This document shows, piece by piece, positions 2,704-51,705 of a stretch of DNA of 64,000 nucleotides. Numbering within the stretch: the stretch's first letter is position 1; every line of letters starts with the position of its first letter. The notes beneath the pieces were generated by a model. The model saw only the letters and a program-made list of their open reading frames with translations. It did not search any database and was not told the origin of the DNA. Made by a program: the position numbers and the translations under genes. This DNA comes from Verrucomicrobiota bacterium (GTDB lineage Bacteria > Verrucomicrobiota > Verrucomicrobiia > Limisphaerales > UBA11358), in the NCBI GenBank assembly GCA_049517655.1, contig JBEKRQ010000003.1, positions 132,906 through 196,905 of the forward strand, written 5' to 3'.

Positions 2704-4662
2704 CTACTCGAAGACCATGATAAAACCACCACGCGGTTGCAGCGTGACCTTCAGTTTCCTGTCGGAAGCAAGGCGGACCTTCTCTTGTCGGAACGAAAGG
2801 TTGCCGTCTTTGCCATCGGTGATGAGCGTGCCGGAGCCGCGAATGGGCAGTTCGCCCAGATCCAGCGTGAGGGTTTTTGCGGTCGCTTCGCCGTTGATAC
2901 CGGCAACATACCAGCGGCCTTCGCCCTGGCGCGCAAGGACCACAAACTTGCCCGGGAAACCGTCCAGGAACTTCGTGTCATCCCAGACGGCCGGCACACC
3001 CTTGAGAAAATTCCGCACATAGCCGGGTGCCTTCGCCATACCCTCCGGAATCTCCGCGTAATGCTGGATGCCCGAGGTGAAGAGCACCGACAATGCCAGC
3101 TCGAATGCGCTGGTGGTGCGGCGCTGGATATGGTTGATGTGATCGAGCACCATCGGGGTGAAATCCATCGGATCGAAGACGTTTCGTGTGAACGGCAACA
3201 TGGCCGCGTGCGAAGGCTCCTGGTCGGCGTTGTTCTGTTCAAACGTGACATATTCGAGGCCACGGACCGCCTCCATTGTCATCAGGTGCGGATAGGTCCG
3301 CTGCCAGCCGCGGGGCAGCGTCGCGCCGTGGAAGTTCATCAGGAAGCCATACGGCGCCGCGTCATCGAGAATGTCCAGATAGTAATTAATCACGGACTGT
3401 CCATCGCCGCCGAAGAAATCAATCTTAAGTCCGGCGACGCCCATGTCCTTCAGTTTCGCGAACTCCTTGACGCGGCTCTCGTGGGTGAGCATAAGGTCGC
3501 GCGGCGTCTGCGGGGCTTCGTTCCAATCTCCCGCCGAATTATACCACAGGAGAATGCCCACGCCCTTGCCGCGGGCGTAATCCACCAGTTTCTTCATCTT
3601 ATCATAACCGATCTGTTTGTCCCAGCCGGAGTCAATCAACGTGTAACGCCAGCCCATCCCGGCGGCGTAATCGATAAATCGTTTTTGCACCTCGTAAATC
3701 GTCTGGCCATCCCCGAGCAGCGGCCAGCTCCACGACGCCTTGCCGGGCCGGACGGACGTGTCCGCGGGATGCGCCGGCGGGTCGGCCAGATCAATGCCCA
3801 GCGTGGATTCGGCAATGGTCTTGAGACTGCCGACCGCGATGATGCGCCACGGCGTGAGCCACGGGAGCGGCGATTCGGGATTGACGGGACCGTTCTGAAA
3901 ATTCTCGCGCGGGTCGGGAAAGCCGACCGAATACTCCCCGTCCGGCGATTCGGCGCGCAGCCGCGTGGCGCAATAATTTCGCGACAGCGAACCTTCGCTC
4001 ACCAGGAGCCATGTGTCCCCGGAACAGAACAGGGCGGGATAAACCCAACCGGCGCTCGTCGGCGACGGCGTGCCGGCGGGGATGTCCTTTTTGTAGAATT
4101 CCTCGTAGGCAGGGTTTGTCTTTTTGAAACCGGTCTTGGCCACCGACATCGGCTGGAGCCATGCGCGCGTGCCCGGCGGAAAATGAAACGAGGAAACTTC
4201 CTCCGTCAACCGGCGCGTGCCGGAGTTCATCCCGGGGAAGAAATAGCGGAAGGCCACCCCGTCGTTGGAGACTTGGAAGATGATGTCCATGTCTTGATCG
4301 TCGGCGTTCAGCAAATGGAACACCTTCCGGTTCGCGAAATAGGTGTTCAACCGCCGCTTGGCGGTGAGAATCTCATATTGGTCCCGCACCGGTTCCGTAT
4401 CAACCGATGCCAGCCGAAGGCCTTTGGAAAAATCGGCGTCGTCGCGCACCAAACCGAGGCGCGAATCCAGTAGCACGGGTTTGCCATCGAACCAGATGGT
4501 ATAACGCGGCCCGTCGGCGGCACCGAGATAAAACTCGACCTCCAGCCGGCCATTGGGACTGGCAATGCCAGGCGCTTTTGACTCCGGCGCCGCATTGGCA
4601 ACACTGCAACAAATGAGGACCGCCGTTAATGTGGCGAATGGTTTGAGCGGATTGGATAACAT
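2704..4662 (-). CDS. glycoside hydrolase family 97 (alpha-glucosidase-like), secreted
   Basis: ORF 2704..4917 trimmed to the ATG at 4662 (MLSNPLKPFATLTAVLICCSVANA signal peptide). GH97-like blocks include RFIDYAAGMGWRYTLIDSGWD and GLKIDFFGGDGQ. Confidence 0.85.
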   Translation of the reverse strand: MLSNPLKPFATLTAVLICCSVANAAPESKAPGIASPNGRLEVEFYLGAADGPRYTIWFDGKPVLLDSRLGLVRDDADFSKGLRLASVDTEPVRDQYEILTAKRRLNTYFANRKVFHLLNADDQDMDIIFQVSNDGVAFRYFFPGMNSGTRRLTEEVSSFHFPPGTRAWLQPMSVAKTGFKKTNPAYEEFYKKDIPAGTPSPTSAGWVYPALFCSGDTWLLVSEGSLSRNYCATRLRAESPDGEYSVGFPDPRENFQNGPVNPESPLPWLTPWRIIAVGSLKTIAESTLGIDLADPPAHPADTSVRPGKASWSWPLLGDGQTIYEVQKRFIDYAAGMGWRYTLIDSGWDKQIGYDKMKKLVDYARGKGVGILLWYNSAGDWNEAPQTPRDLMLTHESRVKEFAKLKDMGVAGLKIDFFGGDGQSVINYYLDILDDAAPYGFLMNFHGATLPRGWQRTYPHLMTMEAVRGLEYVTFEQNNADQEPSHAAMLPFTRNVFDPMDFTPMVLDHINHIQRRTTSAFELALSVLFTSGIQHYAEIPEGMAKAPGYVRNFLKGVPAVWDDTKFLDGFPGKFVVLARQGEGRWYVAGINGEATAKTLTLDLGELPIRGSGTLITDGKDGNLSFRQEKVRLASDRKLKVTLQPRGGFIMVFE

Positions 4663-13876: not shown

Positions 13877-15208
13877 TCAGCAGGCCGGCGCGGATGGCGT
13901 CGCAGTCCATTCATTCAGGCCGCGCTCGTTGGTGTTCACTGGAAACAATCCGAGCAATTCCAACGCTTCGCCGACCAGATAAAGCGAGCCGGTGATGACA
14001 ACGGAATCATTATCTGGAATTTTTTCCAACGCTCCACGCAGAGAATCGCACGCGGAAATTTCAGCCGACAAATTTGCCGTGCGACAAGCCGCTGCCAATT
14101 GGCCCGGATTGGCGCTGCGTTCACTGGAAACCGGGACGGTAAAAATGCGCGACGCCAGCGGCGCAAGTATTCCGCAAATCCGCTGCCAATCCTTGTCCTG
14201 AAGCACGCCAAGAATCAGCGTCCGTTTCGTTGCGGGGGAATTTTTTTCCAGGGCTTCGCGCAGGACTTTCGCGCCGGCAACATTGTGCGCGCCATCGAGC
14301 AACAGCTTTTGACCCGAGGGCCGCGCGACCAATTGCAACCGTCCGGGCCAGTTCACTTTCGACAAACCGGCTCTGATATTTTCTTTGCTCACGGGAATTT
14401 TATTTTGAAGCGCTTCGACCGTTGCGAGTGCGAGCGCTGCGTTCAATTTTTGATGTTCGCCAGATAAGGACAAAACCTCAATTTGGGAGGGTTGCCATGT
14501 TGGCGACCCCAATTGATTTGGGACGGCGACACGCCGTCCCTCCCATGAATTGATTTTTGTTAAAGGCGCATTTTTTTCTTTCGCGATTTTTTCAATGACA
14601 GTCATGGCCTCCGGCTCGTCGGTTGCGGTCACGACCGGCACGCCGGGCTTGATGATGCCCGCTTTTTCGGTGGCGATTTTTTCGAGCGTGTCGCCGAGCC
14701 ATTGTTGATGGTCAAAGGCGATGTTTGTGATGACGCTGGCCAGCGGCGTGACGATGTTCGTGGCGTCCAGCCGCCCGCCAAGGCCGGTTTCCCAGATCAC
14801 CAAATCACATTTTTGCGCGGCGAAAAACCTCAGCGCCATGACCGTGACAACTTCAAAAAATGTCGGATGATGATCAGCGGGAAATTGTTTGAGCAAGGGC
14901 TGCAATTCTTCGACCAGCCGCACCACGTCCTGTTCGCTGATGAGTTGCCGATTAACCTGAATCCGTTCGCGGAACGAGACCAGATGTGGTGAGGTGAACA
15001 ACCCGGCGCGCAAACCGGCCGCGCGATAAATACTTTCGAGCATGGCGCAGGTCGAGCCTTTGCCATTTGTGCCGGCGACATGAATGAAGCGAAGCCGGTT
15101 TTGCGGATTGCCCGCGAGCGCGGCGAGTTTGTAAGTATTTTCCAGCCCAAACTTTGCGCCCAAAAGCCGCAAGCCGTAGAGAAATTGGATGGCTTCGGTG
15201 TAGGTCAC
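13877..15208 (-). CDS. folC: bifunctional folylpolyglutamate synthase / dihydrofolate synthase
   Basis: Mur-ligase P-loop HVAGTNGKGST with FolC-length architecture. Confidence 0.9.
   Translation of the reverse strand: MTYTEAIQFLYGLRLLGAKFGLENTYKLAALAGNPQNRLRFIHVAGTNGKGSTCAMLESIYRAAGLRAGLFTSPHLVSFRERIQVNRQLISEQDVVRLVEELQPLLKQFPADHHPTFFEVVTVMALRFFAAQKCDLVIWETGLGGRLDATNIVTPLASVITNIAFDHQQWLGDTLEKIATEKAGIIKPGVPVVTATDEPEAMTVIEKIAKEKNAPLTKINSWEGRRVAVPNQLGSPTWQPSQIEVLSLSGEHQKLNAALALATVEALQNKIPVSKENIRAGLSKVNWPGRLQLVARPSGQKLLLDGAHNVAGAKVLREALEKNSPATKRTLILGVLQDKDWQRICGILAPLASRIFTVPVSSERSANPGQLAAACRTANLSAEISACDSLRGALEKIPDNDSVVITGSLYLVGEALELLGLFPVNTNERGLNEWTATPSAPAC
14484..14545. repeat. GGGACGG-type palindromic element inserted in frame in folC
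   Basis: tgggaggg...ccctccca outer stem. Inner hairpin gggacggcg-aca-cgccgtccc is perfect. It encodes SWEGRRVAVPNQLGSPTWQPS. Confidence 0.8.
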
Positions 15209-15226
15209 TTTGTGTCTCGACCCAAC

Positions 15227-16840
15227 TTACAACGGCTTCTGGTGAACGTGCTGATGCGCAGCAGCGATAAAGCCTTTGAACAGCGGGTGCGGCTGGTGCG
15301 GCTTGCTCAAAAATTCCGGATGGAACTGGCTCGCGATGAAGAATGGATGCTCTTTGAGCTCGATGACTTCGACCAGCTTGCCATCGGGCGATAGGCCGCT
15401 GAAAACAAAACCGGCCTTCTCGAATTTCTCGCGGTAGGCATTGTTGAATTCGTAGCGGTGACGGTGTCGTTCGTTGACCACGAATGAGCCGTAGAGTTCC
15501 GCCGCCTTTGTGCCGAGCGCCAACTGGCACGGCTGCGCGCCGAGTCGCATCGTGCCGCCTTTCTTGGTGATTTTGCGCTGCTCGTCGAGCATGGCGATGA
15601 CCGGATGCGGTGTGGCCGGATCAAATTCCGTCGAATGCGCCCTGGCCAGTTTCAAAACGTTGCGCGCGAATTCGATGGTGGCGATTTGCATGCCGAGGCA
15701 AAGGCCGAGATAGGGAATTTTGTTTTCGCGGGCGTATTGCGCGGCCTTGATTTTGCCTTCAATGCCGCGTTCGCCAAAACCGCCGGGCACGAGAATGCCG
15801 CCGAGACCCTTCAATATTTTGGCTGCGCCGTCCTTTTCAATTTCCTCCGCGTCCACACGCACGATCTCTACGCCGCAATCATTGCCGATGCCGCCGTGGC
15901 TGATGGCTTCATAGACGGACTTGTAGGCGTCCTGCAACCCGATGTATTTGCCGACGACGCCGATGCGCACGCGATGCTGCGGCGCGATGAGCTTGCGTAT
16001 GATTTCCTGCCAGTGCGCCATGTTGGCGGGCGGCACATCGAGGCGCAGCAATTTGCAAACCAGGTCATCGGCATGCTCGCGCTGGAGCATGAGCGGCACT
16101 TCGTAAATGGAATGTTCTACATCCTGCTCTTCAATCACGGCTTCCACTGGTACGTTGCAGAACAATGAAATTTTCTGGCGCAACTCCTTTTCCAGCGGCT
16201 TTTCGCAGCGGCAGACGATGAGGTGCGGCGTGATGCCGATTTCGCGCAGTTTGGCGACGGATTGTTGCGTCGGTTTGGTCTTCAATTCGCCTGCCGCCTT
16301 GATGAACGGCACGTAGGTCACGTGCACAAACGCCACATTGCCCGCGCCGGCGTCCAGCGCAAACTCGCGGATGGCTTCCAGAAACGGCAGGCCTTCAATG
16401 TCGCCGGTTGTTCCGCCGATTTCCGTGATGACGACATCAGCCTTGCTTTGCTCTGCCAGGACGTGGATCCGATTTTGAATTTCCCCGGTGACATGCGGAA
16501 TGACCTGCACGGTCTTTCCGAGATATTTCCCCTCGCGCTCGTTGTTAAGCACGCTTTGATACACCTGGCCGCTGGTAAGGTTGTTCAGACGCGTGAGTTT
16601 GCAGTTCGTGAACCGCTCGTAATGCCCGAGGTCGAGGTCGGTTTCCGCGCCGTCGTCGAGCACGTAAACCTCGCCGTGCTGATACGGATTCATTGTGCCG
16701 GGATCCACGTTGAGATAGGGATCGAACTTCTGGAGCGCGACCTTGAGACCGCGATTTTCGAGAAGCGTGCCGAGCGACGCCGCTGTCAGGCCCTTGCCCA
16801 GCGAACTCACCACGCCGCCAGTAACAAAAATGAATTTCAT
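15227..16840 (-). CDS. pyrG: CTP synthase
   Basis: [17 protein letters not shown] start plus a C-terminal glutamine amidotransferase domain (GLCLGMQ). Confidence 0.95.
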
Positions 16841-16848
16841 TTTTTTAG

Positions 16849-16937
16849 GCCACAGATGAACACAGATTCACACAGATAATAAATTTACTTTGCTTGTCTT
16901 TCAAAAAATCCGTGTCCATCTGTGATAATCTGTGGCT
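16849..16937. repeat. ATCTGYGG-family palindromic element between kdsB and pyrG
   Basis: gccacagatgaacacagattcacacagataa ... atccgtgtccatctgtgataatctgtggc. Confidence 0.8.
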
Positions 16938-17682
16938 AAAGTTTTTTCAGAATTTGTTCCACCCGCGCCACGTCTTCCGGCGTGTCCACGCCCACGCCGT
17001 CGTAATCCACCTTCACGACCGCGATTTGAATTCCGTTTTCCAGCGCGCGCAACTGCTCCAGCTTCTCCGCTGTTTCAAGCGGCGACGCCGGGAATTTCAC
17101 CAGCCGCAACAGCATTTCACGCCGGTAACCGTAAATGCCCAAGTGTTTCAAAAAAACAAACGCCGCCAACTGTTCGCTCACCGAACCACTGGCGGCCTCG
17201 CGCAGATATGGAATCGTGCGCCGGGAAAAGTATAACGCATGACCGGCGGCGTTGACAACGACTTTTACAACGTTCGGATTGTCGAATTCCGCGGGATTTT
17301 TGATGCGCGTCGCGGCAGTGGACATTTCATTGTCGCGCAAAACGCCGGCGACCGCATCAATTACCGACGGCTCAATCAACGGCTCGTCGCCTTGGATGTT
17401 CACAACGGCATCACACGCGCAGCGTGCGGCGACTTCGGCGATGCGATCCGTGCCGCTCGGATGAGCCGCGAGCGTCATTTCCACACGACAGAATTTTTTT
17501 ACAACGTCGGCGATGCGCGAATCGTCCGTGGCCACGATGACTTCGCTCAACGATTTTGCCTTCCGGCACTGCTCAACGACGCGTTGAATCAGCAGTTTGC
17601 CCGCGATGGGCACAAGCGGCTTGCCGGGAAACCGCGTTGAAGCATAACGCGCGGGAATAATGCCAGCGATTTTCACGGGCAT
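16936..17682 (-). CDS. kdsB: 3-deoxy-manno-octulosonate cytidylyltransferase
   Basis: IIPARYASTRFPGKPL and NIQGDEPLI motifs. Confidence 0.92.
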   Translation of the reverse strand: MPVKIAGIIPARYASTRFPGKPLVPIAGKLLIQRVVEQCRKAKSLSEVIVATDDSRIADVVKKFCRVEMTLAAHPSGTDRIAEVAARCACDAVVNIQGDEPLIEPSVIDAVAGVLRDNEMSTAATRIKNPAEFDNPNVVKVVVNAAGHALYFSRRTIPYLREAASGSVSEQLAAFVFLKHLGIYGYRREMLLRLVKFPASPLETAEKLEQLRALENGIQIAVVKVDYDGVGVDTPEDVARVEQILKKL

Positions 17683-17707
17683 TGATTAAGCCACAACTTG
17701 CCGTGCC

Positions 17708-17747
17708 GAAGCAAGAAGCGAAGGCGGGATTGAACCCGGATGAAACA
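17708..17747 (+). repeat. 40-bp direct repeat, copy 1 (downstream flank of the RiPP-like locus)
   Basis: gaagcaagaagcgaaggcgggattgaacccggatgaaaca matches 23556..23595 at 39/40 in the same orientation. Confidence 0.85.
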
Positions 17748-17974
17748 TAGATTTTTTCAACCTGTCGCAGCCGTGGGTTTTTGCCGGCATGGGTTTCCGG
17801 GTCCTACCACGGCACCCGCATCGCTTTGAGCGGATGGCGCAGGACGAAGCGAGCCAGATTCCTGCGCAGGGGCCAGCGCCCCCGGCGCTCGGCGGCGGGT
17901 GTGTCCCGGAGCAATGCCCACGTCATTTGTGGACGAATGAAATATTTCATGAACTTCCGATACAATTCATCAAT

Positions 17975-19267
17975 TTACCGGTCTGGCATGGCGGTCAGAT
18001 TGACCGGATTCACCTGGCTGTCCGGGTAACTGAAATCTTCCCAACCGATCTTTGACCGCACGGCGGGATCAAGGTTGTTGTAGATGGGTGTTCCTGGCAA
18101 CGGACAAAGCCGTGCTGCGGAAATAATTTCAGGCCGGGCCCAGCGCAGGAACCGCACCGTGGCTTTAAAATCTTCGGGAGTTTCGCCCGGCAGACCCACC
18201 ATGATGTCCGCGAAAATGCGCAAGCCCGCCCGCCGTGTCAGTTCAACGGCGCGCCGGTTCAGCTCGATGTCCGTCTGTTTGCCAAGCCGCCGCAGCGACT
18301 CCGTCGAACCGCTTTCAAAACCGTATTCAACCTGGATGCAGCCGGCTGCCTTCATCTCGGCCAGTATTTCGGCGTCAGCTTGGTTGACCCGGAGGCACGC
18401 TTCCCATTTCAGTTGCTTGTGCAAGCCGGCCCGGCGGATGGCCGTGCATAATTCCAGCAATCTTCCACGATCCGCCCCGACAGTGTCGTCCTCAAAACGT
18501 ATGGCTGTCACGCCGAGGCACGTCGCGGCGTGGCGCATCTGGTCGAGGACGTATTCGATGGAGTGATAACGCACGCCCAATCCGGCGACGAGGTGGCCGG
18601 CGCAGAAGCTGCAGCGATGAGAACAGCCGCGGCTCGTGCGGAGATTGGTGGCCGGGAGTTTCAGGAACCGGATCAGCCACCGGCTGGGCGCTGTGAAATG
18701 TTTCACGTTGAACAGGTCGTAGGCGGGTGGCCCCAGACGATCGAGATCCTCCACCGCCGCGCGGGGAAGCGTGCGCGCCAGCGTCCCCTTGCGGCGGAAA
18801 ACAATTCCATTGACGGACGGCGAGAGGCCATGATCGGCCAGTTCCAGCATGGTTAATTCGCCTTCGCCGATGACAGCCGCGTCAATGGCCGGGCAACTGG
18901 TCAACAGTTCTTCCGGTAGAGCGGTTGGGTGCGGGCCGCCAGCCATCACCAGTGTTTGCGAACCCAACAACGTTTTGGCGTCTTCGGCAACAACCGCCGC
19001 TTCAGGCACACTGGAACTGACGAGCGACAAGCCCACGAGTTCGGGGCGAAATTCCTGCATCTGCGCCTGTAGTAATGCCCGTGCCGCAGCCCGATCGTAA
19101 CGATTCAACTCCAGCGTCTCCTCACAGAGATGGATTTTTACCTGATGCCCGCCCCGGCGCAGCACGGTGGCAATGCAGGCCAGTCCGGATGGAATCCAGC
19201 GGGAACGAAAAGCGCCCTTGGGCCAGGCCGAAGGCGGTGGTGCTGGATAGACGAGCAGGACGTTCAT
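17975..19267 (-). CDS. B12-binding domain radical SAM enzyme
   Basis: N-terminal B12-binding-like domain and CxxxCxxC (SRGCSHRCSFCAG). Its ATG overlaps the upstream stop (ATGA). An in-frame TAA at 17975-17977 is followed by a 56-codon continuation down to 17804. Confidence 0.85.
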   Translation of the reverse strand: MNVLLVYPAPPPSAWPKGAFRSRWIPSGLACIATVLRRGGHQVKIHLCEETLELNRYDRAAARALLQAQMQEFRPELVGLSLVSSSVPEAAVVAEDAKTLLGSQTLVMAGGPHPTALPEELLTSCPAIDAAVIGEGELTMLELADHGLSPSVNGIVFRRKGTLARTLPRAAVEDLDRLGPPAYDLFNVKHFTAPSRWLIRFLKLPATNLRTSRGCSHRCSFCAGHLVAGLGVRYHSIEYVLDQMRHAATCLGVTAIRFEDDTVGADRGRLLELCTAIRRAGLHKQLKWEACLRVNQADAEILAEMKAAGCIQVEYGFESGSTESLRRLGKQTDIELNRRAVELTRRAGLRIFADIMVGLPGETPEDFKATVRFLRWARPEIISAARLCPLPGTPIYNNLDPAVRSKIGWEDFSYPDSQVNPVNLTAMPDR

Positions 19268-20274
19268 TTGTGTTTTAGGAATTCCCGCAACAACTGTCGG
19301 CGGAACGAATCACGTGAAGCGTGGGCGCGCAGCACGACGCCACGGGTCAGCAATAGATTGCCCGGCCAGGCCCGGCGCTCAATCCCCAAACGTTTCATCA
19401 GGTTCACGCAATTTGGTTCGTCATACATTTTATAGGCCAATGCCAGTGCCGTTGCCAATGCGCGGTTCGTCCCGGTTCGTGGAACGGCTTGAGCAAGCCA
19501 GGTTTCGTCCAGCGTTCCCGCCGTCCCGCGAACGGCCTGGACAACGTCGCCAAGCACTTGCAGCCGGTCAACGCCGTGACTGGCCACACCGTGCACTGCT
19601 GCAATCAGCAACGTAGCCGCAGCGCTGGGGCGGAGTCGGTTCTGATGCGTCTCCAGTTGCAGGTCTTCATACGTTACGGACAATGCGCGCCGCAGCGACG
19701 GCGAATTCACCAGGTTCCAATGAATCTCCACCATGCCGCCGGAGCGATTGGGATGGCGCCAGCTTTCCTCGCCGTAACCGGTTTGATGCTTCATTGGCAC
19801 TACGACCGGCTGGTAACCCAATTCTCTGAACACCTGCCGGGTTTCTGGAAGAATCCGTTGTGGAATCAGCAGGTCCACATCGGTGAATGGACGCAACGAC
19901 GGATGCGAATAGAGACGATCGGCAAAATCGCCACCCTTCAGGATGACCGCCGGCAACCCCGCTTCTTGCATACGGGCGATGATTTCCAGGGCCTGCCGGC
20001 GCAGCACGAGTGATAATCCTGTCCGCTGCCGCATTCGTTGCCGTGCCCAATCGCACACTGCTGGGTCCGGCAGAAAGGAATGCCGTTGTTCATTTTCCCG
20101 GCTGGTCAACCGTTTAAGATTTTCCATGACGATGGCCAGCACGCCATGCCGATCCGCCAACTCCAGCAGCCGCCGCAGTTTTGCCGGTTCTGGTGGAGCA
20201 AGCTTGATGACCTCAGCCGGGCCGCGGGGATCCGCCAGCGCTAGGAGCAAGGAATGGATTTGATTCGGGAACAT
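19264..20274 (-). CDS. NTP_transf_5-like uncharacterised nucleotidyltransferase
   Basis: ILKGGDFADRLYSHPSLRPFTDVDLLIP block. Start MFPNQIH at 20274 overlaps the upstream stop (TGATG). Confidence 0.75.
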   Translation of the reverse strand: MFPNQIHSLLLALADPRGPAEVIKLAPPEPAKLRRLLELADRHGVLAIVMENLKRLTSRENEQRHSFLPDPAVCDWARQRMRQRTGLSLVLRRQALEIIARMQEAGLPAVILKGGDFADRLYSHPSLRPFTDVDLLIPQRILPETRQVFRELGYQPVVVPMKHQTGYGEESWRHPNRSGGMVEIHWNLVNSPSLRRALSVTYEDLQLETHQNRLRPSAAATLLIAAVHGVASHGVDRLQVLGDVVQAVRGTAGTLDETWLAQAVPRTGTNRALATALALAYKMYDEPNCVNLMKRLGIERRAWPGNLLLTRGVVLRAHASRDSFRRQLLREFLKHK

Positions 20275-21263
20275 CAAGACCACAGTGAAGCGAGCCGATC
20301 CGGCAACTCTTCCAGGCGCGGGCAAAGGCTGGCTTGGAAAGTCCGGCTGGAACGCACCAGTTCCCCCAGTGCCTCAAACGCCCGGCCCGCCACAGCCTCG
20401 CGACGCCGATCGGGCGCACGGACGTTTTCGCGGGTCAGGCGTGTCAGCGCCGTGACCTTGTCCACCGGCTCAATCCGATGGGACTTCGTATTTCGCGGAT
20501 TCAGAAAAAGAATCAATCCCGGTGATGCCGTCAGGCCGGTTGTCTGCGGTTTCAATGACCGTGCATCCAGAAGCCGCTCGCCGTGCAAACTGACGCCGCC
20601 CATGGGCAAATCCCGCAGCCAGGGGAGCAACTCAAACGTTCGTGAATGCACCTTGCAACGGATTCGGATTCCCCAGATTCGTCCCGGCTGGTTCGTGGTC
20701 GCGGCCTGGTAAAAAGTCATGTCGTCAGCCAGCATGCCCAGACCCGCCCCGGCCAGCGCCAGTGCCAGTGTGGTTTTTCCACGGCCGCTCATGCCCGAGA
20801 AAATGAGCGCGCGCCGCTGGCCGCCGACTTGGACGAACAGGCTGGCGGCATGGATTACGTGATGGCCGGCCAACCCGAGGCAATCACACAACAGCGGCAG
20901 GAAACAAGTTTCCAACAGACCAGCTTTGCTGTTTGGACTCACAACAATCCTGGCAATGCGCCCAGCCAGATCAATGTCAGCGCAGACATGATCCGGTATC
21001 TCAATCCGCCGCCGATTAAGACCACTGCGACAGATCATCCGGGTGCCGCCGGGCAGTGTGCCTGTCCAGAAGTTGCGCAATTCCGGGTCGGCTTTCTGAT
21101 GTGGCTGCCCATAATCCAGAATCACATGGAATCCCTCCACACCGTCGCCGGAGTCTGCATAAGCGCCCAGAAGCACATTAATCACATCCAGCAGCGATTG
21201 ACTTGGTGTCTCCACCGTCATTCGCATGCCATGCAGGTTGTAATGCGCCCTTGCCAATCTCAT
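20274..21263 (-). CDS. HPr-kinase-C-like P-loop protein (HprK-related kinase)
   Basis: GMSGRGKTTLALALAGAGLGMLADD resembles the HPr kinase/phosphorylase C-terminal P-loop region. Confidence 0.75.
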   Translation of the reverse strand: MRLARAHYNLHGMRMTVETPSQSLLDVINVLLGAYADSGDGVEGFHVILDYGQPHQKADPELRNFWTGTLPGGTRMICRSGLNRRRIEIPDHVCADIDLAGRIARIVVSPNSKAGLLETCFLPLLCDCLGLAGHHVIHAASLFVQVGGQRRALIFSGMSGRGKTTLALALAGAGLGMLADDMTFYQAATTNQPGRIWGIRIRCKVHSRTFELLPWLRDLPMGGVSLHGERLLDARSLKPQTTGLTASPGLILFLNPRNTKSHRIEPVDKVTALTRLTRENVRAPDRRREAVAGRAFEALGELVRSSRTFQASLCPRLEELPDRLASLWS

Positions 21264-21427
21264 GCTCGGCTCGATAGGGAAAATAAAAACAAACAGACAA
21301 TGCCGCTGCTGTCTTCAAGAAGACTGCAACATATTCAAAATTGGAATCCACACATAAACCAAACCTCTCCGAAAGTCAGCACAACTGGTTACCGACATCT
21401 CAAGGACGAGAAACTAGAGGCCTTTTG

Positions 21428-21453
21428 GCAAGCGTCTTTTGCTGGCCGCTTGC
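21428..21453 (-). terminator. hairpin 6 nt downstream of the last precursor gene (possible attenuator)
   Basis: On the minus strand GCAAGCG-12 nt loop-CGCTTGC. There is no clear U-tract. It sits in the 196-bp gap before the kinase gene. Confidence 0.35.
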
Positions 21454-21459
21454 GAGTCT

Positions 21460-21594
21460 TTACCCCGGTTCGGTTGTGACGCCCGGGCTGCCGTCTTCGG
21501 TTACTTCCTTGATCTGTTCACGCTTTTTGATCTCCGGCGGGGCGTAGTCGCGCTTTTTGGTCTCCGGCGGGGTTTGTTTTTTTGATGTTTTCAT
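21460..21594 (-). CDS. RiPP-like precursor peptide, paralog 6 (44 aa)
   Basis: Manual translation MKTSKKQTPPETKKRDYAPPEIKKREQIKEVTEDGSPGVTTEPG*. Its ATG overlaps the stop of paralog 5 (ATGA). Confidence 0.75.
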   Translation of the reverse strand: MKTSKKQTPPETKKRDYAPPEIKKREQIKEVTEDGSPGVTTEPG

Positions 21595-21728
21595 ACAGGC
21601 CCGGTGCTGCCCGGGGGAACGCCTTCTGTGACTTCCTTGATTTGTTCGCGCTTTTTAATCTCCGGCGGGACGTAGTCGCGCTTCTGTTTCTTGTTCTCCA
21701 GCGGGGTTTGTTTTTTTGATGTTTTCAT
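21591..21728 (-). CDS. RiPP-like precursor peptide, paralog 5 (45 aa)
   Basis: Manual translation MKTSKKQTPLENKKQKRDYVPPEIKKREQIKEVTEGVPPGSTGPV*. Confidence 0.75.
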   Translation of the reverse strand: MKTSKKQTPLENKKQKRDYVPPEIKKREQIKEVTEGVPPGSTGPV

Positions 21729-21742
21729 ATGATATTTCTACG

Positions 21743-21874
21743 TCAAACGGTGGTCCCGGGGGATGGGAATTCCGTGACTTCCTTGATTTGTTCGCGCTTT
21801 TTGATTTCCGGTTTGACGTAGTCGCGCTTCTGTTTCTTGTTCTCCGGCGGAGTTTGTTTTTTTGATGTTTTCAT
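21743..21874 (-). CDS. RiPP-like precursor peptide, paralog 4 (43 aa)
   Basis: Manual translation MKTSKKQTPPENKKQKRDYVKPEIKKREQIKEVTEFPSPGTTV*. Confidence 0.75.
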   Translation of the reverse strand: MKTSKKQTPPENKKQKRDYVKPEIKKREQIKEVTEFPSPGTTV

Positions 21875-21879
21875 ATAAT

Positions 21880-22347
21880 TTAATTTCGGATCAATTGTGA
21901 AACCAGTTGCTTGAGTTCGGCAACGTTCCGCTTGAGCGCCTGAATTTCCGTATCCTTTTCTTCCAGTTTCTGATTCAACCCCTGGATCGCCGCCAGCTCC
22001 ACGCCATGGAATTCCAAAGTGCTGATGTTCTTGTCATCGCGGCCGGGATAAAATGCGCCTTTAAAATCCTGCGCCATTGGACCGAGATGCGGGACATCAC
22101 CATCCTTCTCCCATTTGTAATTCCACCGTTCAATGGGAATGGCAGCCAGCTTTTCCAGCACGGCCACCGTATTCACTGATCGGAAGTTTTTCTTGGCGTT
22201 GCGATCCGATATGAGCACCGGTGTGATAGCTGGGCCCGAGCCTTCCGTGGTTTCCTTGATTTGTTCGCGCTTTTTGATTTTCGGCGGGACGTAGTCGCGT
22301 TTCTGTTTCTTGTTTTCCGGCAGGGTTTGTTTTTTGGATGTTTTCAT
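21880..22347 (-). CDS. precursor-leader paralog 3 fused to a Peptidase_S74 (endosialidase intramolecular chaperone) domain
   Basis: MKTSKKQTLPENKKQKRDYVPPKIKKREQIKETTE-GSGPAITPVLI-SDRNAKKNF... The C-terminal 109 aa carry S74-like blocks (SDRxxKKN, LEKLAAIPIERWNY, HLGPMAQDF, coiled-coil tail). Confidence 0.8.
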   Translation of the reverse strand: MKTSKKQTLPENKKQKRDYVPPKIKKREQIKETTEGSGPAITPVLISDRNAKKNFRSVNTVAVLEKLAAIPIERWNYKWEKDGDVPHLGPMAQDFKGAFYPGRDDKNISTLEFHGVELAAIQGLNQKLEEKDTEIQALKRNVAELKQLVSQLIRN

Positions 22348-22361
22348 ATAATGTTTTTACG

Positions 22362-22493
22362 TCAAAAGACGGTCCCGGGGATTTGTTGTTCTGTGACTTC
22401 CTTGATTTGTTCGCGCTTTTTGATCTCCGGCTTGACGTAGTCGCGCTTTTGTTTCTTGTTTTCCGGCTGGGTTTGTTTTTTAGGCGTTTTCAT
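22362..22493 (-). CDS. RiPP-like precursor peptide, paralog 2 (43 aa)
   Basis: Manual translation MKTPKKQTQPENKKQKRDYVKPEIKKREQIKEVTEQQIPGTVF*. Confidence 0.75.
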   Translation of the reverse strand: MKTPKKQTQPENKKQKRDYVKPEIKKREQIKEVTEQQIPGTVF

Positions 22494-22518
22494 ATTGTTT
22501 TCGTTTTTTCCACTCTTT

Positions 22519-22659
22519 TTAATCTATTGCCACAGTGACGGGTCCGGGGCCTTGTTCTGTGACTTCCTTGATCTGTTCGCGCTTTTTGATCTCCGGTTTG
22601 ACGTAGTCGCGCTTCTGGTTCTTGTTTTCCGGCAGAGTTTGTTCTTTTGAAGTTTTCAT
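22519..22659 (-). CDS. RiPP-like precursor peptide, paralog 1 (46 aa)
   Basis: Internal ATG of track ORF 22519..22737: MKTSKEQTLPENKNQKRDYVKPEIKKREQIKEVTEQGPGPVTVAID*. Confidence 0.75.
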   Translation of the reverse strand: MKTSKEQTLPENKNQKRDYVKPEIKKREQIKEVTEQGPGPVTVAID

Positions 22660-22745
22660 GCGATTAAAACTCGTTATTGAATGGCCGATTTGGAAATTCA
22701 AGTCTAATTGCGCGTGTTGTCCCAATTTAACAGACATCTGTCAAA

Positions 22746-23210
22746 CTATTTGCTCACGCCACCCATTGTTGCTGCACGTTCTTCTGCCAGACAGTAGGTC
22801 AGGAGTGTCGCCGCCGGCTGTTCTGGCGGCGGAGACAGACAGACGTCGTTGAGGGTGACCCAGCAATGCGCGTGCATTCGCCGACTGTCGAGCCGTGGCG
22901 GAAAAACTCCAATGTGCAGAACCGCCGGGCAACCCGCCAGCCTCAGGAAATGGAATAAAGTCAGCCCATGCCGCAGGCAGGCGCGCCGGCGCATATTTCG
23001 CGGTTGACGCAACCGATGGGCCACCAACCGGGAGATTTCTTCGGGCGGCATGCCGCCATAGGGTTTGAAACGGGGCAGCGGGGTCAACAAACGCAATAAT
23101 TGTTTTAACGGAAGGATTTTCACCAGCAACGGAATCAGCGTTGCCAGCAGCCAGATATGACCGCGCAACAGCAGTCGGCCTGCGGAAAACGTATGTTCAG
23201 GGTTCTTCAA
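22746..23210 (-). CDS. lasso-peptide B2-type (transglutaminase-like) cysteine protease
   Basis: ACLRHGLTLFHFLRLAGCPAVLHIGV....MHAHCWVTLND carries the Cys...His arrangement of the McjB C-terminal/B2 family. Overlaps pqqD by 14 nt. Confidence 0.78.
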   Translation of the reverse strand: MKNPEHTFSAGRLLLRGHIWLLATLIPLLVKILPLKQLLRLLTPLPRFKPYGGMPPEEISRLVAHRLRQPRNMRRRACLRHGLTLFHFLRLAGCPAVLHIGVFPPRLDSRRMHAHCWVTLNDVCLSPPPEQPAATLLTYCLAEERAATMGGVSK

Positions 23211-23487
23211 CGAGAAGTTTCTCCTCCAGCAACTTCGCTGCTAATGCCGTCATGTCCCTGCTCAACGTTTCCCGGGGAACCTGAAACTCGTTGAAGAGCG
23301 TGTCAATCACTGCGGCCAGCGATTGCCTGCCGTCCAGTCCACGCAAAAAGGCGGCGGTGGTTTCATTGCAGGTATACAGATAACCGGAGTTGAGCGAGAG
23401 CACGACCGTCTCTTCACCGGGCCCCAGCGATTGAAAGGTCACATCATCCGCCAATCGCAGGCGCGCATTCTGGGATAACGAGGGCAT
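23197..23487 (-). CDS. PqqD-family RiPP recognition element protein (lasso B1-like)
   Basis: 96 aa from the ATG at 23487. LADDVTFQSLGPGEETVVLSLNSGYLYTCNETTAAFLRGLDGRQSLAAVIDTL is typical PqqD. Confidence 0.78.
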   Translation of the reverse strand: MPSLSQNARLRLADDVTFQSLGPGEETVVLSLNSGYLYTCNETTAAFLRGLDGRQSLAAVIDTLFNEFQVPRETLSRDMTALAAKLLEEKLLVEEP

Positions 23488-23555
23488 TGAATTATTCACA
23501 CAGGTATTTAGCCACAGCCCCCGCCGACTCGTCACGCCGAAATGCAATGGAGTCG

Positions 23556-23595
23556 GAAGCAAGAAGCGAAGGCGGGATTGAACCCAGATGAAACA
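23556..23595 (+). repeat. 40-bp direct repeat, copy 2 (upstream flank of the RiPP-like locus)
   Basis: gaagcaagaagcgaaggcgggattgaacccagatgaaaca matches 17708..17747 at 39/40. Confidence 0.85.
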
Positions 23596-23681
23596 CCGCA
23601 ACGACTGGGGATTGGAAAACAGCCGGCGGGGGGTTAGACTGAACCCTGAATTACAACGCTGAACCTGAACCAAAAACCATT

Positions 23682-24029
23682 ATGCCATTGTTAAAACTCG
23701 AAACCACCGTCGCGCTTGCTGATGAAAAGAAGCAGGCGCTACTTGCGTCCCTCTCCAAAATCGTGGCCGGGACGATTGGCAAACCTGAACAATACGTCAT
23801 GGTCGTCGTCAACCCCGCGTCCATCCTCATGTCCGGCAAACCGGGCGCCGCCGCCTTCGTGGACATCCGCAGCATCGGCGGTTTGAACGATTCCGTGAAC
23901 CGGCAACTATCGCAAAAGATTTGCAGTCTGTTGAAAGAATCCCTTGGCGTTCCGCTAGACCGGATTTACCTGAACTTCACCAATGTCGCTGGTGGCAACT
24001 GGGGTTGTAACGGCGACACTTTCGGGTGA
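23682..24029 (+). CDS. MIF/phenylpyruvate tautomerase-family protein
   Basis: 115 aa with Pro at position 2 (MPLLKLETT...) and MIF-like spacing (VMVVV...MSG...AAFVDIRSIG). Confidence 0.7.
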   Translation: MPLLKLETTVALADEKKQALLASLSKIVAGTIGKPEQYVMVVVNPASILMSGKPGAAAFVDIRSIGGLNDSVNRQLSQKICSLLKESLGVPLDRIYLNFTNVAGGNWGCNGDTFG

Positions 24030-34310: not shown

Positions 34311-35357
34311 CTATTTAGAACTTTGCAGAGAGTTATAATATGTGTTGATTCTTTGTGATTCGGTGATGAGTTCGTTGATAAGCGTGTTGATATTGGTCGT
34401 GTTATTTGAAAAGGCTTCTCCTAAGGCTTTATGGGCTGCTGCCAATTTAACCGTGGCCGACTCCATCGATGCAAACGTAGTATCGGCATTTCTCATTTCT
34501 TGTGTCAAAGCTGCCATTTCCTGAATCTCTGTGCGCTTTTCACCGGGATTCTTATCAAATTGACTCAGGTTGTTTAGAATATACTGGTTGTTGTTTCGTA
34601 AAGTGTCATCGTAATCATTTGCCAACTGTTGCCTGAGAATTTCAAAATCCCTCTGCAAAAGCTGGCAAATGTCCGCAACAGGCTGTTGCATTAGGGCAAT
34701 GTTTTTTTCGGCTTCTTTTTGTTGCTTCCAAGTGATCAGCCAGTGTCCCAGTGTATTGACGGCAACCGTAAAAATCTGAAGTTCCTGTGTTGTGGCCGGT
34801 GCCTTATTGAAAAAAGATGCTTTGACAAGAGCCTGATCAACATTGGTCAAAGCTTGTCCAAGCTTTGTTGTATCCTGGTCGAAGTTCGTGAGTGAACTAT
34901 TACCCATAAGGACAGACAAATTGGCCGCATATGATTTTAATCCATTAAGAACGTCAAGCCTGACCTGCAACGCATTCGTATCCATAAAAGGCTTAATGGC
35001 ATCCGGGTTATAACCTGTTTTGATGTCATAATTTAAAACCGTAACGCTTACTTCCTCCTTAAAGTGATTGTCCTCAACCAGCTTGAAGGCCTGTGTGGTG
35101 TTATTTGCTGTTAACGTTACTGCATCTGAAAAATTTTTGATCTGCTTGGCGGCATCAGGACTGGCACACCCCGCAATAGCGGCCATCAACGCAGCCAGCA
35201 ACAAGTAATTGATGGATCTACGGTGAAATTTAGAGTCTTCAGTTCTATCCGGCTGTAGCTCGAGGTTGAGCTTCCCGTAACAAAAGTGACCCGGACTTAG
35301 TTTGCCCAACGGCTCGGGTTGTTCGAGTTGACGAATGAGTCTTTCTCTGTTGGCCAT
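34311..35357 (-). CDS. hypothetical lipoprotein
   Basis: 348-aa ORF with an internal signal/lipobox LLLAALMAAIAGCASP, so the true start is uncertain. No family recognised. Confidence 0.5.
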   Translation of the reverse strand: MANRERLIRQLEQPEPLGKLSPGHFCYGKLNLELQPDRTEDSKFHRRSINYLLLAALMAAIAGCASPDAAKQIKNFSDAVTLTANNTTQAFKLVEDNHFKEEVSVTVLNYDIKTGYNPDAIKPFMDTNALQVRLDVLNGLKSYAANLSVLMGNSSLTNFDQDTTKLGQALTNVDQALVKASFFNKAPATTQELQIFTVAVNTLGHWLITWKQQKEAEKNIALMQQPVADICQLLQRDFEILRQQLANDYDDTLRNNNQYILNNLSQFDKNPGEKRTEIQEMAALTQEMRNADTTFASMESATVKLAAAHKALGEAFSNNTTNINTLINELITESQRINTYYNSLQSSK

Positions 35358-35801: not shown

Positions 35802-36806
35802 ATGCCTGCGTATTGGATGATTACGGATCGGGCCATCAAAAATGGCCTGCCCACCGACGACCAAGGGCCGTTGAAATATTTTGTAAGCGACAAGGCGCCG
35901 CTCGATAACTTTAAAAACTGGCAGCCCGTTTCCTCCGATGCCTTCACAAAGTTGCTCACCGCTGCCGCCGACCAATTCCCCGCGTTGGACCACGCCGAAA
36001 ACGAGAAGCAAAATCACGTCACGTTTTTCGTTCATGGCTACAATGTCGGTTGGGACGATGCCGCCCGCCGTTACCAACAACTCTGTGCTGACCTTTACAG
36101 CGGCCCGGACAGTCTCGGCATTTGCATCAGCTTCGACTGGCCATCGCTCGGCAGCGTGCTCGGTTATTTGCCCGACCGTGACCACGCGCGGGATTGTGCG
36201 AACGACCTGGTTGATGTGCTCGGCCAGCTTTACGACTGGTTGCTGGACAAACAGCAAGCCGCCATGGATGACCCGGCTGATGCGTGCAAAGCCAAAATAT
36301 CCGTGATTTCCCACAGCATGGGCAATTATGTCGTCCAGAAAGCCATGGCCGCCGCTTGGACGCGCAAAAACCAGCCACTGCTCGTCAGCCTCATCAATCA
36401 ACTCGTCATGATTGCCGCCGACGTGGACAACGACCTCTTTCAACCGGACGCCAGCGACGGCAGCGATGGCAATGCACTGGCGAATCTCACCTATCGCATC
36501 ACCGCGCTTTACAGCGGGCGCGACGCGGTGCTGGGTGCTTCCGCCGGCCTGAAACATTTCGGCACACGCCGTTTGGGACGCACCGGGCTGGCCGTTCGTC
36601 CGCCCACCGGCAAGGACAATGTCTGGGACATTGACTGTTCGAGTTTTTTTCCGGACAGCGTGGGCGGCATGGACATCCACAGCGCCTATTTTGGCCAATA
36701 TGGGACCCTGCCTTTGATTCGCGATTTATTGCGCGGGCTTGACCGTTCCGTTCTCTACGCACTCGGCGAAACGCAAGGTCACGCCTGGCCACCGGCTCCT
36801 AAATAA
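35802..36806 (+). CDS. alpha/beta hydrolase, DUF900-like
   Basis: HVTFFVHGYNVGWDDA and the nucleophile elbow ISHSMGNYV. Confidence 0.7.
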   Translation: MPAYWMITDRAIKNGLPTDDQGPLKYFVSDKAPLDNFKNWQPVSSDAFTKLLTAAADQFPALDHAENEKQNHVTFFVHGYNVGWDDAARRYQQLCADLYSGPDSLGICISFDWPSLGSVLGYLPDRDHARDCANDLVDVLGQLYDWLLDKQQAAMDDPADACKAKISVISHSMGNYVVQKAMAAAWTRKNQPLLVSLINQLVMIAADVDNDLFQPDASDGSDGNALANLTYRITALYSGRDAVLGASAGLKHFGTRRLGRTGLAVRPPTGKDNVWDIDCSSFFPDSVGGMDIHSAYFGQYGTLPLIRDLLRGLDRSVLYALGETQGHAWPPAPK

Positions 36807-39389: not shown

Positions 39390-40817
39390 TCAACTCGATT
39401 TCACGCGAAAGATTTCTGTTTCGCAGCGGACGACGTGCGTTGTTTCCCGTTTCTTACCAGTCGGTGTTTTAGCCCATGCCTCCTGCAAACCTACGTCAAC
39501 AGTCGTGTGAACGACCGCGCCGCGCTCGACCTCGGCGCATGAAAGAAACACGAACTTGCATTCGTGAAAGATGCGCTCGGTCGGCACTTGCGGTTTGTCG
39601 TCCATCGAGCGCGATCCATTGATCGAATCGGAAAACAGATCAAGATCATTTTGAGAAAAAACTGAAACTTCAATTCTTACTTGGAAATTCCGCAACCAAA
39701 TCAAAACGATTTCCCGTTCGGCGCGTTTGGCCGTCAGCGTGAGGTAGGCGAAGTTCAATTCAATTCCGACGCAGCCGCGTTTGATGTGGAGCGCGGCGAT
39801 GGCGGTTGTTCCGCCGCCGAGAAACGGGTCGAGAACCAAATCGCCTTCGTTGGTCGAGGCCAACAGGCAGCGTTCAACCAGCGCAATCGGTTTCTGAGTA
39901 GGGTGCTTGCCGAAAGCTTTCTCGCCGTTGGACGGAGAAGGAAGCGTCCAGACGGACGAGAAAGAGGAGTCAGGAGTATGGAGTAAGGAGGAAGTGTCAG
40001 ATTCTTGCTCCCTGCTCCTTGCTCCTTCATCCTTCGTCGCGCTGGCGACGTCTCTCCACACGGTTTTCATCTGTTTGCCGGTGACTTTCCGCATTTCCTG
40101 ATAGTTAAATACGTGTTTACTTTTTTCATTTTTGGCCGCCCACAGAACGGTTTCAGTTGAGTGCGTGAAATAGCGGCAGCTCAAGTTCGGCGGCGGATTG
40201 GGTTTTTCCCAGGCGATGTCGTTGAGGATTTTGTAGCCGAGTTGTTGCAGGGCATAGCCGATGGAGAAAATGACGTGATGCGTGCCGCTCACCCAAATCG
40301 TTCCGTTGGGTTTGAGCACGCGCTGACAGCGTCGCAGCCATTCGAGATTGAATTCGTGGTTCAGTTCCGGTCCACGCGATTTATCCCAGTCGCCTTTATC
40401 GACCTTCACCATTTTGCCGGCGTGACAGGTGATGCCGCCGTTGGACAAGAAATACGGCGGGTCGGCAAAGATGGCGTCGAACCGGCCATCGGGATATTTG
40501 GTGGCGATGGCGTCGAGGAGTTCGAGACAATTACCGTGGTAAAGCCAGAGGCCGCGCGCGGAATCAGAGTAAACAAGGCGCGGCAGGCCAGAAGCCGGAG
40601 GTCGGAGATCGGACTTCTGACTTCCGATTTCTGACATCTGAACAATTGAGCCGTCTTCGCGAAGTTTGAAATGCGCGGAGGTCAGAGGTCGGAAGGCGGA
40701 TGCCGGATGCCGGAGGTCAGAGGTCTGACTTCTGTCTTCTGTCTTCCGGCTACCGGGTTTCGGCGGCTTGGATTTGTAGAACGAGCGGCGTTTGGTTGGT
40801 TTCGACTTTTTCGGCAC
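39390..40817 (-). CDS. beta-class N6-adenine (or N4-cytosine) DNA methyltransferase, DpnA/M2.DpnII-like
   Basis: FADPPYFLSNGG ... DKGDWDK ... NLSCRYFTHSTET ... GKHPTQKP ... LDPFLGGGTT. The start is uncertain (GTG 40817 or ATG 40637). The N-terminal part, an internal loop and the ~110-aa C-terminal tail are non-canonical. Confidence 0.82.
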   Translation of the reverse strand: MPKKSKPTKRRSFYKSKPPKPGSRKTEDRSQTSDLRHPASAFRPLTSAHFKLREDGSIVQMSEIGSQKSDLRPPASGLPRLVYSDSARGLWLYHGNCLELLDAIATKYPDGRFDAIFADPPYFLSNGGITCHAGKMVKVDKGDWDKSRGPELNHEFNLEWLRRCQRVLKPNGTIWVSGTHHVIFSIGYALQQLGYKILNDIAWEKPNPPPNLSCRYFTHSTETVLWAAKNEKSKHVFNYQEMRKVTGKQMKTVWRDVASATKDEGARSREQESDTSSLLHTPDSSFSSVWTLPSPSNGEKAFGKHPTQKPIALVERCLLASTNEGDLVLDPFLGGGTTAIAALHIKRGCVGIELNFAYLTLTAKRAEREIVLIWLRNFQVRIEVSVFSQNDLDLFSDSINGSRSMDDKPQVPTERIFHECKFVFLSCAEVERGAVVHTTVDVGLQEAWAKTPTGKKRETTHVVRCETEIFRVKSS

Positions 40818-49970: not shown

Positions 49971-50042
49971 GAGCGCCTTGGCGTCTTGGCGTGAGATTAA
50001 AAACCTTTTTGACCGGCTGGCGATACGGTTTAACGTAAGCGC

Positions 50043-51688: not shown

Positions 51689-51705
51689 AATCGCAAAAGA
51701 TTTTT

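Follow-up and report, generated by a model that had tools for sequence, protein, structure and literature searches.

An operon on the minus strand (23487 to 17804) of a 64,000-nucleotide stretch of contig JBEKRQ010000003.1, from an uncultured Verrucomicrobiota bacterium, probably encodes a pathway for peptides made by ribosomes and modified after translation (RiPPs) that is derived from lasso peptide biosynthesis, is free of a cyclase and makes short linear phosphorylated peptides, as a relative in the Planctomycetes-Verrucomicrobia-Chlamydiae (PVC) superphylum of the Linear Polyphosphorylated Peptides (LPPs). We refer to the whole stretch as the window and give all coordinates as window positions. 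The parts of the pathway and their intact catalytic motifs were read from the sequence, and the chemistry was inferred by homology. The order on the minus strand is B1, B2, six precursor genes, a 196-bp gap, a kinase gene (K), a nucleotidyltransferase gene (N) and the gene of a B12-binding radical S-adenosylmethionine (SAM) enzyme:

23197..23487, minus strand: B1, discrete PqqD-type RiPP recognition element (RRE), 96 aa (Pfam PqqD, PF05402, 48.4 bits against a cutoff of 23.4)
22746..23210, minus strand: B2, lasso-type transglutaminase-fold cysteine protease, 154 aa, TTG start (NF033537 lasso_biosyn_B2, 52.2 bits against 33; Transglut_core3, 37.9 bits against 26)
22519..22659, minus strand: precursor 1, 46 aa, predicted core QGPGPVTVAID (core of the orthologue in locus L009, QQGPGPVTVE)
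22362..22493, minus strand: precursor 2, 43 aa, predicted core QQIPGTVF (core of the L009 orthologue, QPTPGTVF)
22210..22347, minus strand: precursor 3, leader and core (residues 1-46), predicted core GSGPAITPVLI
21880..22209, minus strand: Peptidase_S74 domain and C-terminal coiled coil, fused in frame to precursor 3 (Pfam PF13884, 45.9 bits against 22)
21743..21874, minus strand: precursor 4, 43 aa, predicted core FPSPGTTV
21591..21728, minus strand: precursor 5, 45 aa, predicted core GVPPGSTGPV
21460..21594, minus strand: precursor 6, 44 aa, predicted core DGSPGVTTEPG
20274..21263, minus strand: K, HprK/PEPCK-fold P-loop kinase, 329 aa (by motifs, profile match and AlphaFold2 model)
19264..20274, minus strand: N, NTP_transf_5 nucleotidyltransferase-fold enzyme, 336 aa (PF14907, 117.7 bits against 31.2)
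17804..19267, minus strand: B12-binding radical SAM enzyme, 487 codons with an in-frame TAA at 17975-17977 (N-terminal B12-binding domain, PF02310, 65 bits; Radical_SAM, PF04055, 75 bits)

A preliminary description of the window had read this operon as a RiPP locus, and none of the in silico refutation tests that were run refuted that reading. All open reading frames (ORFs) that it named are present on the minus strand where it had placed them, the 196-bp gap before the kinase gene spans 21264-21459, and the proposed translational overlaps were located, K and N sharing TGATG and N and the radical SAM gene sharing ATGA. The start of B2 overlaps the end of B1 by 14 nt, the stop codon of precursor 5 overlaps the start of precursor 6 (ATGA), and the start of N was set at 20274 (336 aa) rather than at a TTG at 20325. 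The six precursor genes comprise 46, 43, 155, 43, 45, and 44 codons, and the short ones were missing from the initial ORF list because of its 60-aa cutoff; public gene callers do call them in the orthologous locus of GCA_050012035.1 (L010). In that annotation B2 is a “lasso peptide biosynthesis B2 protein” and B1 a “PqqD family protein”, “hypothetical protein” stands for the kinase and for the 44-aa precursors, and S74-fused precursors are named “tail fiber domain-containing protein”. Public annotation hides the system behind these “lasso”, “hypothetical” and “tail fiber” labels. Promoter and terminator scans of 17600-23900 returned no more sites than in shuffled sequence, and we claim no attenuator in the 196-nt gap upstream of the kinase gene, because it folds no better than its shuffles (z = 0.03).

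Related loci were gathered from gene-context look-ups, from a scan of species-representative genomes with a 10-sequence kinase alignment (9 loci, in Verrucomicrobiota/Limisphaerales, Phycisphaerae, and Pirellulales) and from a metagenome scan (60 loci). Full-length relatives of K extend from 100% to about 26% identity and come mostly from Verrucomicrobiota metagenome-assembled genomes (MAGs). The cassette is carried by about 55 distinct loci in Verrucomicrobiota and Planctomycetota metagenomes (55 groups after dereplication at >97% kinase identity). B1 and B2, counted in groups with at least 3 kb of sequence upstream, are found in 26 of 27 and 25 of 27 groups, respectively; N and the radical SAM enzyme, counted where at least 2.7 kb is available downstream of K, are found in all 29 and in 25 of 29. 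The module composed of B1, B2, one or more precursor genes, K, N, and the radical SAM gene persists from 88% down to about 29-35% kinase identity with unrelated flanking genes, and its precursor array holds 1-9 genes (six in the window). The kinase family is much larger than the inspected loci, because 257 clusters (50% identity, E ≤ 1e-30) were found among 1.84 billion representatives, most of them full-length among the matches listed.

All six precursors share the N-terminus MKTSKKQT.PENKKQKRDYV.PEIKKREQIKEVTE, with Tyr at -17, Pro at -14, Ile at -12, and Thr at -2 relative to the predicted cleavage site, as had been proposed. Within the window, the 51-nt leader segments average 88% identity, whereas the cores reach 41% over their first 24 nt. 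Differences between leaders fall on third codon positions in 50 cases vs 19 and 19 at the other two, and 39 of 63 codon differences are synonymous; judged by this pattern, the leader codons are under purifying selection. A chance array of ORFs is excluded by the codon-position and synteny evidence, and the leader motif was not found elsewhere in the 64-kb window. From the related loci we collected 101 unique precursors with 68 distinct leaders and 94 unique cores. Tyr-17 and Pro-14 were demanded by the search pattern and are thus present in 68 of 68 leaders; Leu/Ile-12 is kept in 67 of 68 and Thr-2 in 54 of 68, together with Lys/Arg-10, Arg/His-9, Glu/Gln-8, Leu/Ile-6, and Val/Ile-3. The leaders accordingly carry the lasso-type motif YxxPxL...Tx with Thr at -2, the lasso Gly-8 being replaced by Glu. 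The small ORFs are kept in frame, on the operon strand and in position at dozens of related loci in two phyla, almost all of them between B2 and K; they lie directly upstream of K in loci without B1 and B2, and downstream of the enzyme genes in L006 and L078.

The PqqD and lasso-B2 assignments of the preliminary description hold, both scoring above the curated cutoffs of their hidden Markov models (HMMs). The solved structures nearest to B1 in the PDB are the lasso proteins TfuB1 and TbiB1, and 21 B1 orthologues keep an invariant Asn and, 37 residues away, an invariant Asp, a spacing equal to that of the leader-binding residues N33 and D70 of LppB from the LPP pathway (PMC13381572). In B2, Cys78 and His115 are invariant across 13 orthologues. 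By homology, B1 and B2 are bona fide lasso-type proteins.

The cores point away from a lasso product. They had been thought to diverge completely after the Thr-Glu pair at the end of the leader; they are indeed variable overall, but across the 94 cores Gly1 is found in 62% and Pro4 in 51%, Val/Ile recurs at positions 5-6, and Ser or Thr occupies position 7 in 71 cores (76%) and falls within positions 6-8 in 90 (96%). About one core in four has its Ser/Thr at 5, 6, or 8 instead. No Cys occurs in any core, and core length ranges from 7 to 21 residues with a median of 11 (8-11 in the window). The kinase probably acts on the conserved Ser/Thr near position 7. No window core ends in Ser, as had been stated, but this does not extend to the relatives, five of which stop exactly at Ser/Thr7 (GNAPIVS, GTPSRVS, GGDLRVS, GVGPPVT, and GIGPPVT); because the conserved residue is usually internal and C-terminal only in these five, the difficulty raised earlier for a kinase acting on a C-terminal Ser falls away. 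An Asp or Glu that could accept a macrolactam bond at positions 7-9 occurs in 9 of the 94 unique cores and in one of the six window cores. Because of this scarcity a lasso macrolactam is, on core composition, ruled out for about 90% of cores, in line with the earlier view that a lasso fold is implausible here.

A cyclase was likewise not found, in the window (as first described) or in the flanks of related loci, the search covering the 64-kb window and related loci with up to 10 kb on each side. The PP-loop pattern [ST]GGxD[ST] is absent from every ORF of at least 200 aa in the window and the 78 loci scanned (856 ORFs), a Pfam scan of the 20 other large window ORFs yielded housekeeping genes only and no Asn_synthase, and PF00733 is missing from the precomputed Pfam tables of 11 related loci.

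The enzyme genes downstream of the gap supply the presumptive tailoring chemistry. K had been described as HprK-like and compared to the HprK-related kinase models. Fold and motifs bear this out: the SGxSGxGKTT and DD motifs are invariant (S159, G160, G162, K163, T164, T165, D180, and D181), the best PDB profile match of the family is the P-loop region of HPrK/P (E = 3.8e-4), and the AlphaFold2 model (pLDDT, the predicted per-residue confidence, 88) finds its best fold matches in PEPCK (TM-score 0.52-0.58). By motif and modelled fold, K belongs to the HprK/PEPCK-fold P-loop kinases. Membership of TIGR04352, in contrast, is ruled out by score, as K reaches 32.3 bits (E = 5e-8) vs a cutoff of 200. 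By HMM score, K is the weakest of the domain assignments. The cassettes of TIGR04352 (HprK_rel_A), TIGR04355 (HprK_rel_B), and TIGR04249 (ScmC) resemble the present one in general kinase fold and in a PqqD-like partner, but the window kinase scores below the cutoffs of all three and belongs to none. A lead towards ScmC was dropped, PF27840 appearing only as a precomputed weak or faint match in relatives of K and giving no match in our own Pfam scan; a literature search for ScmA, ScmB, and ScmC returned only unrelated acronyms. N keeps its motif KG...DxD...E invariant in 16 orthologues, and a sequence search of the PDB found no relative of it.

The radical SAM enzyme carries its CxxxCxxC motif as CSHRCSFC and scores below all equivalog cutoffs. 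Its reading frame is interrupted by the TAA at 17975-17977, where the closest orthologue, in L009, has CAA (Gln). The 53 codons beyond the TAA are conserved in that orthologue, so the segment 17804-17965, a candidate separate 53-aa gene, was rejected as such and is the C-terminus of the radical SAM gene, split off by the stop. Given that these downstream codons are still conserved and that L009 has CAA, the TAA can be read as a recent nonsense mutation private to this sequence, as a polymorphism of the strain or as an error in the sequence.

The third precursor adds a feature of its own. Ser47 of this 155-aa protein aligns with position 1 of the Peptidase_S74 profile and Lys52 lies five residues on, which is the Ser-Lys dyad spacing of the family; among 41 relatives Lys52 is invariant and Ser47 nearly so (90% or more). 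The AlphaFold2 monomer is poor overall (pLDDT 62), with a helix at 110-154 modelled at pLDDT 89-95, and no structural match came from Foldseek or from a profile search of the PDB with the alignment, so that the S74 call is based on the Pfam HMM together with the dyad motif. At least 44 protein clusters (90% identity) share the architecture of leader, 11-15-residue core, and S74 domain, and a distant branch (L078) has it too. If the protein cuts itself before Ser47, the remainder would be a leader-core peptide of 46 residues that ends in GSGPAITPVLI and resembles the other five precursors. The domain may serve to define the C-terminus, to trimerise precursors or for something else. A module consisting of S74 and a coiled coil, beginning SDRNAKKNF..., also ends many small YadA- or tail-fibre-like repeat proteins of Verrucomicrobiota (proteins P0238-P0311), the sampled ones showing 50-65% identity with the window protein along the entire alignment. 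The sharing of this module with repeat proteins suggests that the precursor gained it by recombination. The S74 chaperones of phage tail spikes and fibres and the YadA-like proteins have the module, the Ser-Lys spacing and the coiled coil in common with precursor 3, but there the module ends a trimeric beta-helical fibre, whereas here it follows a 46-residue RiPP leader-core. Descriptions of a RiPP precursor with an S74 follower are not known to us, and the literature searches made for this analysis turned up none.

The preliminary description had been unable to assign the predicted products to a described RiPP class; that statement is out of date, the best fit being the LPPs (lppAKBSDN) of Popov et al. 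(Nat Commun, May 2026; PMC13381572), stated there to be restricted to Bacillota. LPP clusters combine an RRE, an HprK-like kinase and an NTP_transf_5 protein, without a cyclase, to make a linear polyphosphorylated peptide; the pathway processes unphosphorylated precursor poorly, and LPPs are viewed by the authors as linear counterparts of phosphorylated lasso peptides (PMC13381572). The LPP clusters were detected with models for PqqD, NTP_transf_5, and TIGR04249/04352/04355 (PMC13381572), and a comparison through the shared family models shows that the window cassette has the discrete PqqD-type RRE, the HprK-like kinase and NTP_transf_5 in common with them, as well as the lack of a cyclase. 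The LPP leader YxxPxVLxHQxIxFETxxS is in register with the leader described here (Y1, P4, hydrophobic 6, H/R9, Q/E10, hydrophobic 12, and T16), and a Ser near the cleavage site is phosphorylated there, Ser/Thr being the predicted target here. The two systems differ in several respects. The LPP leader peptidase is the SipW-like LppS (TIGR02228), which cuts after Thr-1, whereas lasso B2 takes its place here and no SpI-type peptidase gene was found in the cassette or in the Pfam tables of related loci. LPP clusters include an MsbA-like exporter, whereas the window has none and an adjacent ABC exporter occurs in three Planctomycetota-type loci only; they lack a radical SAM enzyme, in contrast to 25 of 29 loci here; and they hold 1-3 precursors rather than 1-9, some of which here are fused to Peptidase_S74. 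The LPP target is Ser3 (Ser+3) of a 45-residue core, whereas no Ser is conserved at +3 here and the Ser/Thr lies at about position 7 of 7-21 residues. LPPs belong to Bacillota and the present loci to Verrucomicrobiota and Planctomycetota.

The lasso clusters of paeninodin and pseudomycoidin share with the cassette B1 and B2, an HprK-like kinase acting on the linear precursor, NTP_transf_5, and a leader with YxxP and Thr-2 (PMC8498205). They have an Asn-synthetase-like cyclase, an Asp/Glu acceptor and, as phosphorylation target, the C-terminal Ser of the threaded peptide (PMC8498205), whereas the present cassette lacks a cyclase, 90% of the cores lack an acceptor and the target is mostly internal. 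The clade is functionally LPP-like and evolutionarily lasso-derived, and is a member of neither family as defined; it lacks the SpI peptidase and the exporter of the LPP definition. About half of lasso-type discrete RREs found by RRE-Finder occur without peptidase and cyclase (PMC7470986). A literature search found no paper describing this cassette or cyclase-less lasso clusters. The phospeptin system, which is LanM-related, was set aside. The available part of its description (PMC9259500) mentions no HprK-type or NTP_transf_5 enzyme.

In lasso pathways, Ser is phosphorylated by HprK-like kinases on the linear precursor that still bears its leader, and a hexose is added to this phosphate by NTP_transf_5 proteins (PMC8498205). 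In the pathway proposed here the six precursors would be translated and bound by B1 through the leader motif Y-17..P-14..I/L-12, and K would act on the peptide before the leader is removed, phosphorylating the Ser/Thr near core position 7, possibly several times. N would elaborate the phosphate, e.g., with a hexose or a nucleotide-derived group; this step is a guess, because LppN showed no activity in the sole LPP study (PMC13381572). The B12-radical SAM enzyme would add a further modification, the likeliest being C-methylation of an adjoining Val, Ile, Pro, or Thr. The S74-fused precursor is expected first to shed its C-terminal domain by autoproteolysis before Ser47, which would yield the 46-residue leader-core. 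B2, with the substrate presented by B1, would then cut after Thr-Glu (between TE and G) to release linear peptides of 8-11 residues (7-21 across the family), and no macrolactam ring would be formed.

Several observations weigh against this favoured pathway. The chemistry of the product is inferred by homology for this clade, and beside the inactivity of LppN, which bears on the N step, LppK took Ser but not Thr (PMC13381572), whereas Thr is commoner than Ser at the target position of the present cores. K lies below the cutoff of every curated HprK model (32 and 22 bits vs cutoffs of 200), and the third catalytic residue of B2 (Asp) is not conserved. The nearest solved relative of the radical SAM core is AprD4, a dehydratase and not a methylase, and the window gene contains the premature stop. 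No exporter gene adjoins the cassette in the window. Finally, leader removal by B2 is not universal, as B2 is missing from a few loci, in some of them together with B1.

Phosphorylation of Ser/Thr7, with or without nucleotidylation, might alternatively serve as leaving-group activation, leading to a dehydro residue or to a seven-residue amine-linked ring closed by the free N-terminal amine of Gly1, which would amount to a ring of lasso size without a lasso cyclase. We consider this unlikely. Gly1 and Ser/Thr7 do match the positions of a lasso ring (Gly1 and Asp/Glu7-9), and class III/IV lanthipeptide synthetases are established examples of phosphorylation by a kinase followed by elimination, which provides a general precedent; the relationship of the radical SAM enzyme to a dehydratase and the inactivity of LppN point the same way. 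Set against this, no lyase or cyclase candidate was identified, and paeninodin, pseudomycoidin, and the LPPs stop at a phosphate or phosphoglycosyl group (PMC8498205, PMC13381572). Moreover, the Ser/Thr shifts away from position 7 in about a quarter of cores, residue 1 is not always Gly, and the position could equally be a “ruler” by which the kinase measures from the leader. That the K/N pair replaces the cyclase chemically, through a ring or dehydro residue, and that S74 is the first self-removing RiPP follower, together making a new RiPP class, is a similarly doubtful proposition.

Ordinary lasso peptides with a cyclase encoded elsewhere in the genome are a very unlikely explanation, even though B1 and B2 are bona fide lasso-type proteins, the leader has the lasso YxxPxL...T-2 motif and the carrier genomes are incomplete MAGs. 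An acidic residue at 7-9 is confined to 9 of 94 cores, and with five cores of 7 residues and a median of 11 these peptides are too short to thread. Neither the 64-kb window nor the 856 ORFs of at least 200 aa from 78 loci contained a PP-loop or Asn-synthase ORF, and a separately encoded cyclase would be atypical, as Transglut_core3 and cyclase pair one-to-one in Bacillota in the LPP study (39 and 39), Transglut_core3 being met there only alongside a cyclase, in a neighbouring lasso cluster (PMC13381572). The weakest alternative, a decaying lasso cluster that has lost its cyclase and makes no product, could appeal to the in-frame stop and to the lack of an exporter and of a recognisable promoter or terminator, but it is most improbable in view of a cassette kept in about 55 distinct lineages of two phyla with intact catalytic motifs, leaders under purifying selection, arrays expanded up to 9 copies, a kinase family of 257 clusters and a stop that is private to the window sequence.

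For the cyclase-free phosphopeptide pathway, the variants among related loci identify the constant partners of the precursors as K and N rather than B1 and B2, because some loci lack B2 or both. L056 has B1 without B2, and L058 (6300-7960) and L079 (3388-4136) have neither nearby, with 6-8 precursors directly upstream of K, N, and the radical SAM gene. The cores in L058 and L079 end in ...V-T/S-D-G..., and their leaders retain YxxPx[LIV]. The radical SAM gene is not adjacent in L008 and in Pirellulales loci, and in L006 (kinase 29% identical, 3165-4545) a Formyl_trans_N gene stands in its place. The candidate precursors of L006 are YDKPTVAKSDALLQKVA followed by the core AGGTTIVK and YSKPALVKSSLCVQVAA followed by AVSVISLQKIG, both located downstream of the enzymes and not between B2 and K. 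In L003 (13716-15851), L017 (13417-15961), and L044 (7187-9361), the radical SAM gene is followed directly downstream by a gene for a fused ABC_membrane+ABC_tran exporter in convergent orientation. These three loci are Planctomycetota-type, and the Verrucomicrobiota loci, including the window, have no such gene nearby.

If this pathway operates as proposed, a cyclase-free, kinase-centred RiPP family would extend from Bacillota to the uncultured PVC superphylum of peat and sediment, and a lasso B1/B2 pair could serve a cyclase-less pathway. New with respect to the described family would be the conserved B12-radical SAM step, a precursor with a predicted self-cutting C-terminal Peptidase_S74 domain, a B2 without a cyclase and a constant Ser/Thr7 whose placement recalls the ring positions of lasso peptides. 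The natural cores, about a hundred short peptides with a single fixed Ser/Thr, form a substrate panel for HprK-like kinases and NTP_transf_5 enzymes.

The cassette is bordered in the window by folC-like, pyrG, and kdsB genes downstream (13877-17682) and by a MIF/tautomerase gene upstream (23682-24029), syntenic with the 88%-identical loci L001 and L002; because the flanks of more distant relatives differ, we regard the folC-like, pyrG, kdsB, and MIF genes as neighbours and not as cluster members. Elsewhere in the window, the segment 34000-36800 has a low GC content (0.45 vs about 0.55 elsewhere), encodes a 348-aa ORF without Pfam match (34311-35357) and a DUF900 alpha/beta hydrolase (35802-36806), and may be acquired DNA. 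An IS1595-family transposase gene (DDE_Tnp_IS1595 and zinc ribbon) is located at 55983-56927, and a separate N6/N4 DNA methylase gene at 39390-40817. A 438-aa ORF at 9273-10589 matches no Pfam family at E ≤ 1e-5, and a GC-skew spike of 0.196 is seen around 50-52 kb (50001-52000). A Ser/Thr protein kinase of 1158 aa, bearing TM2, DUF4097 (toastrack), and DUF4019 domains, is encoded at 60093-63569.

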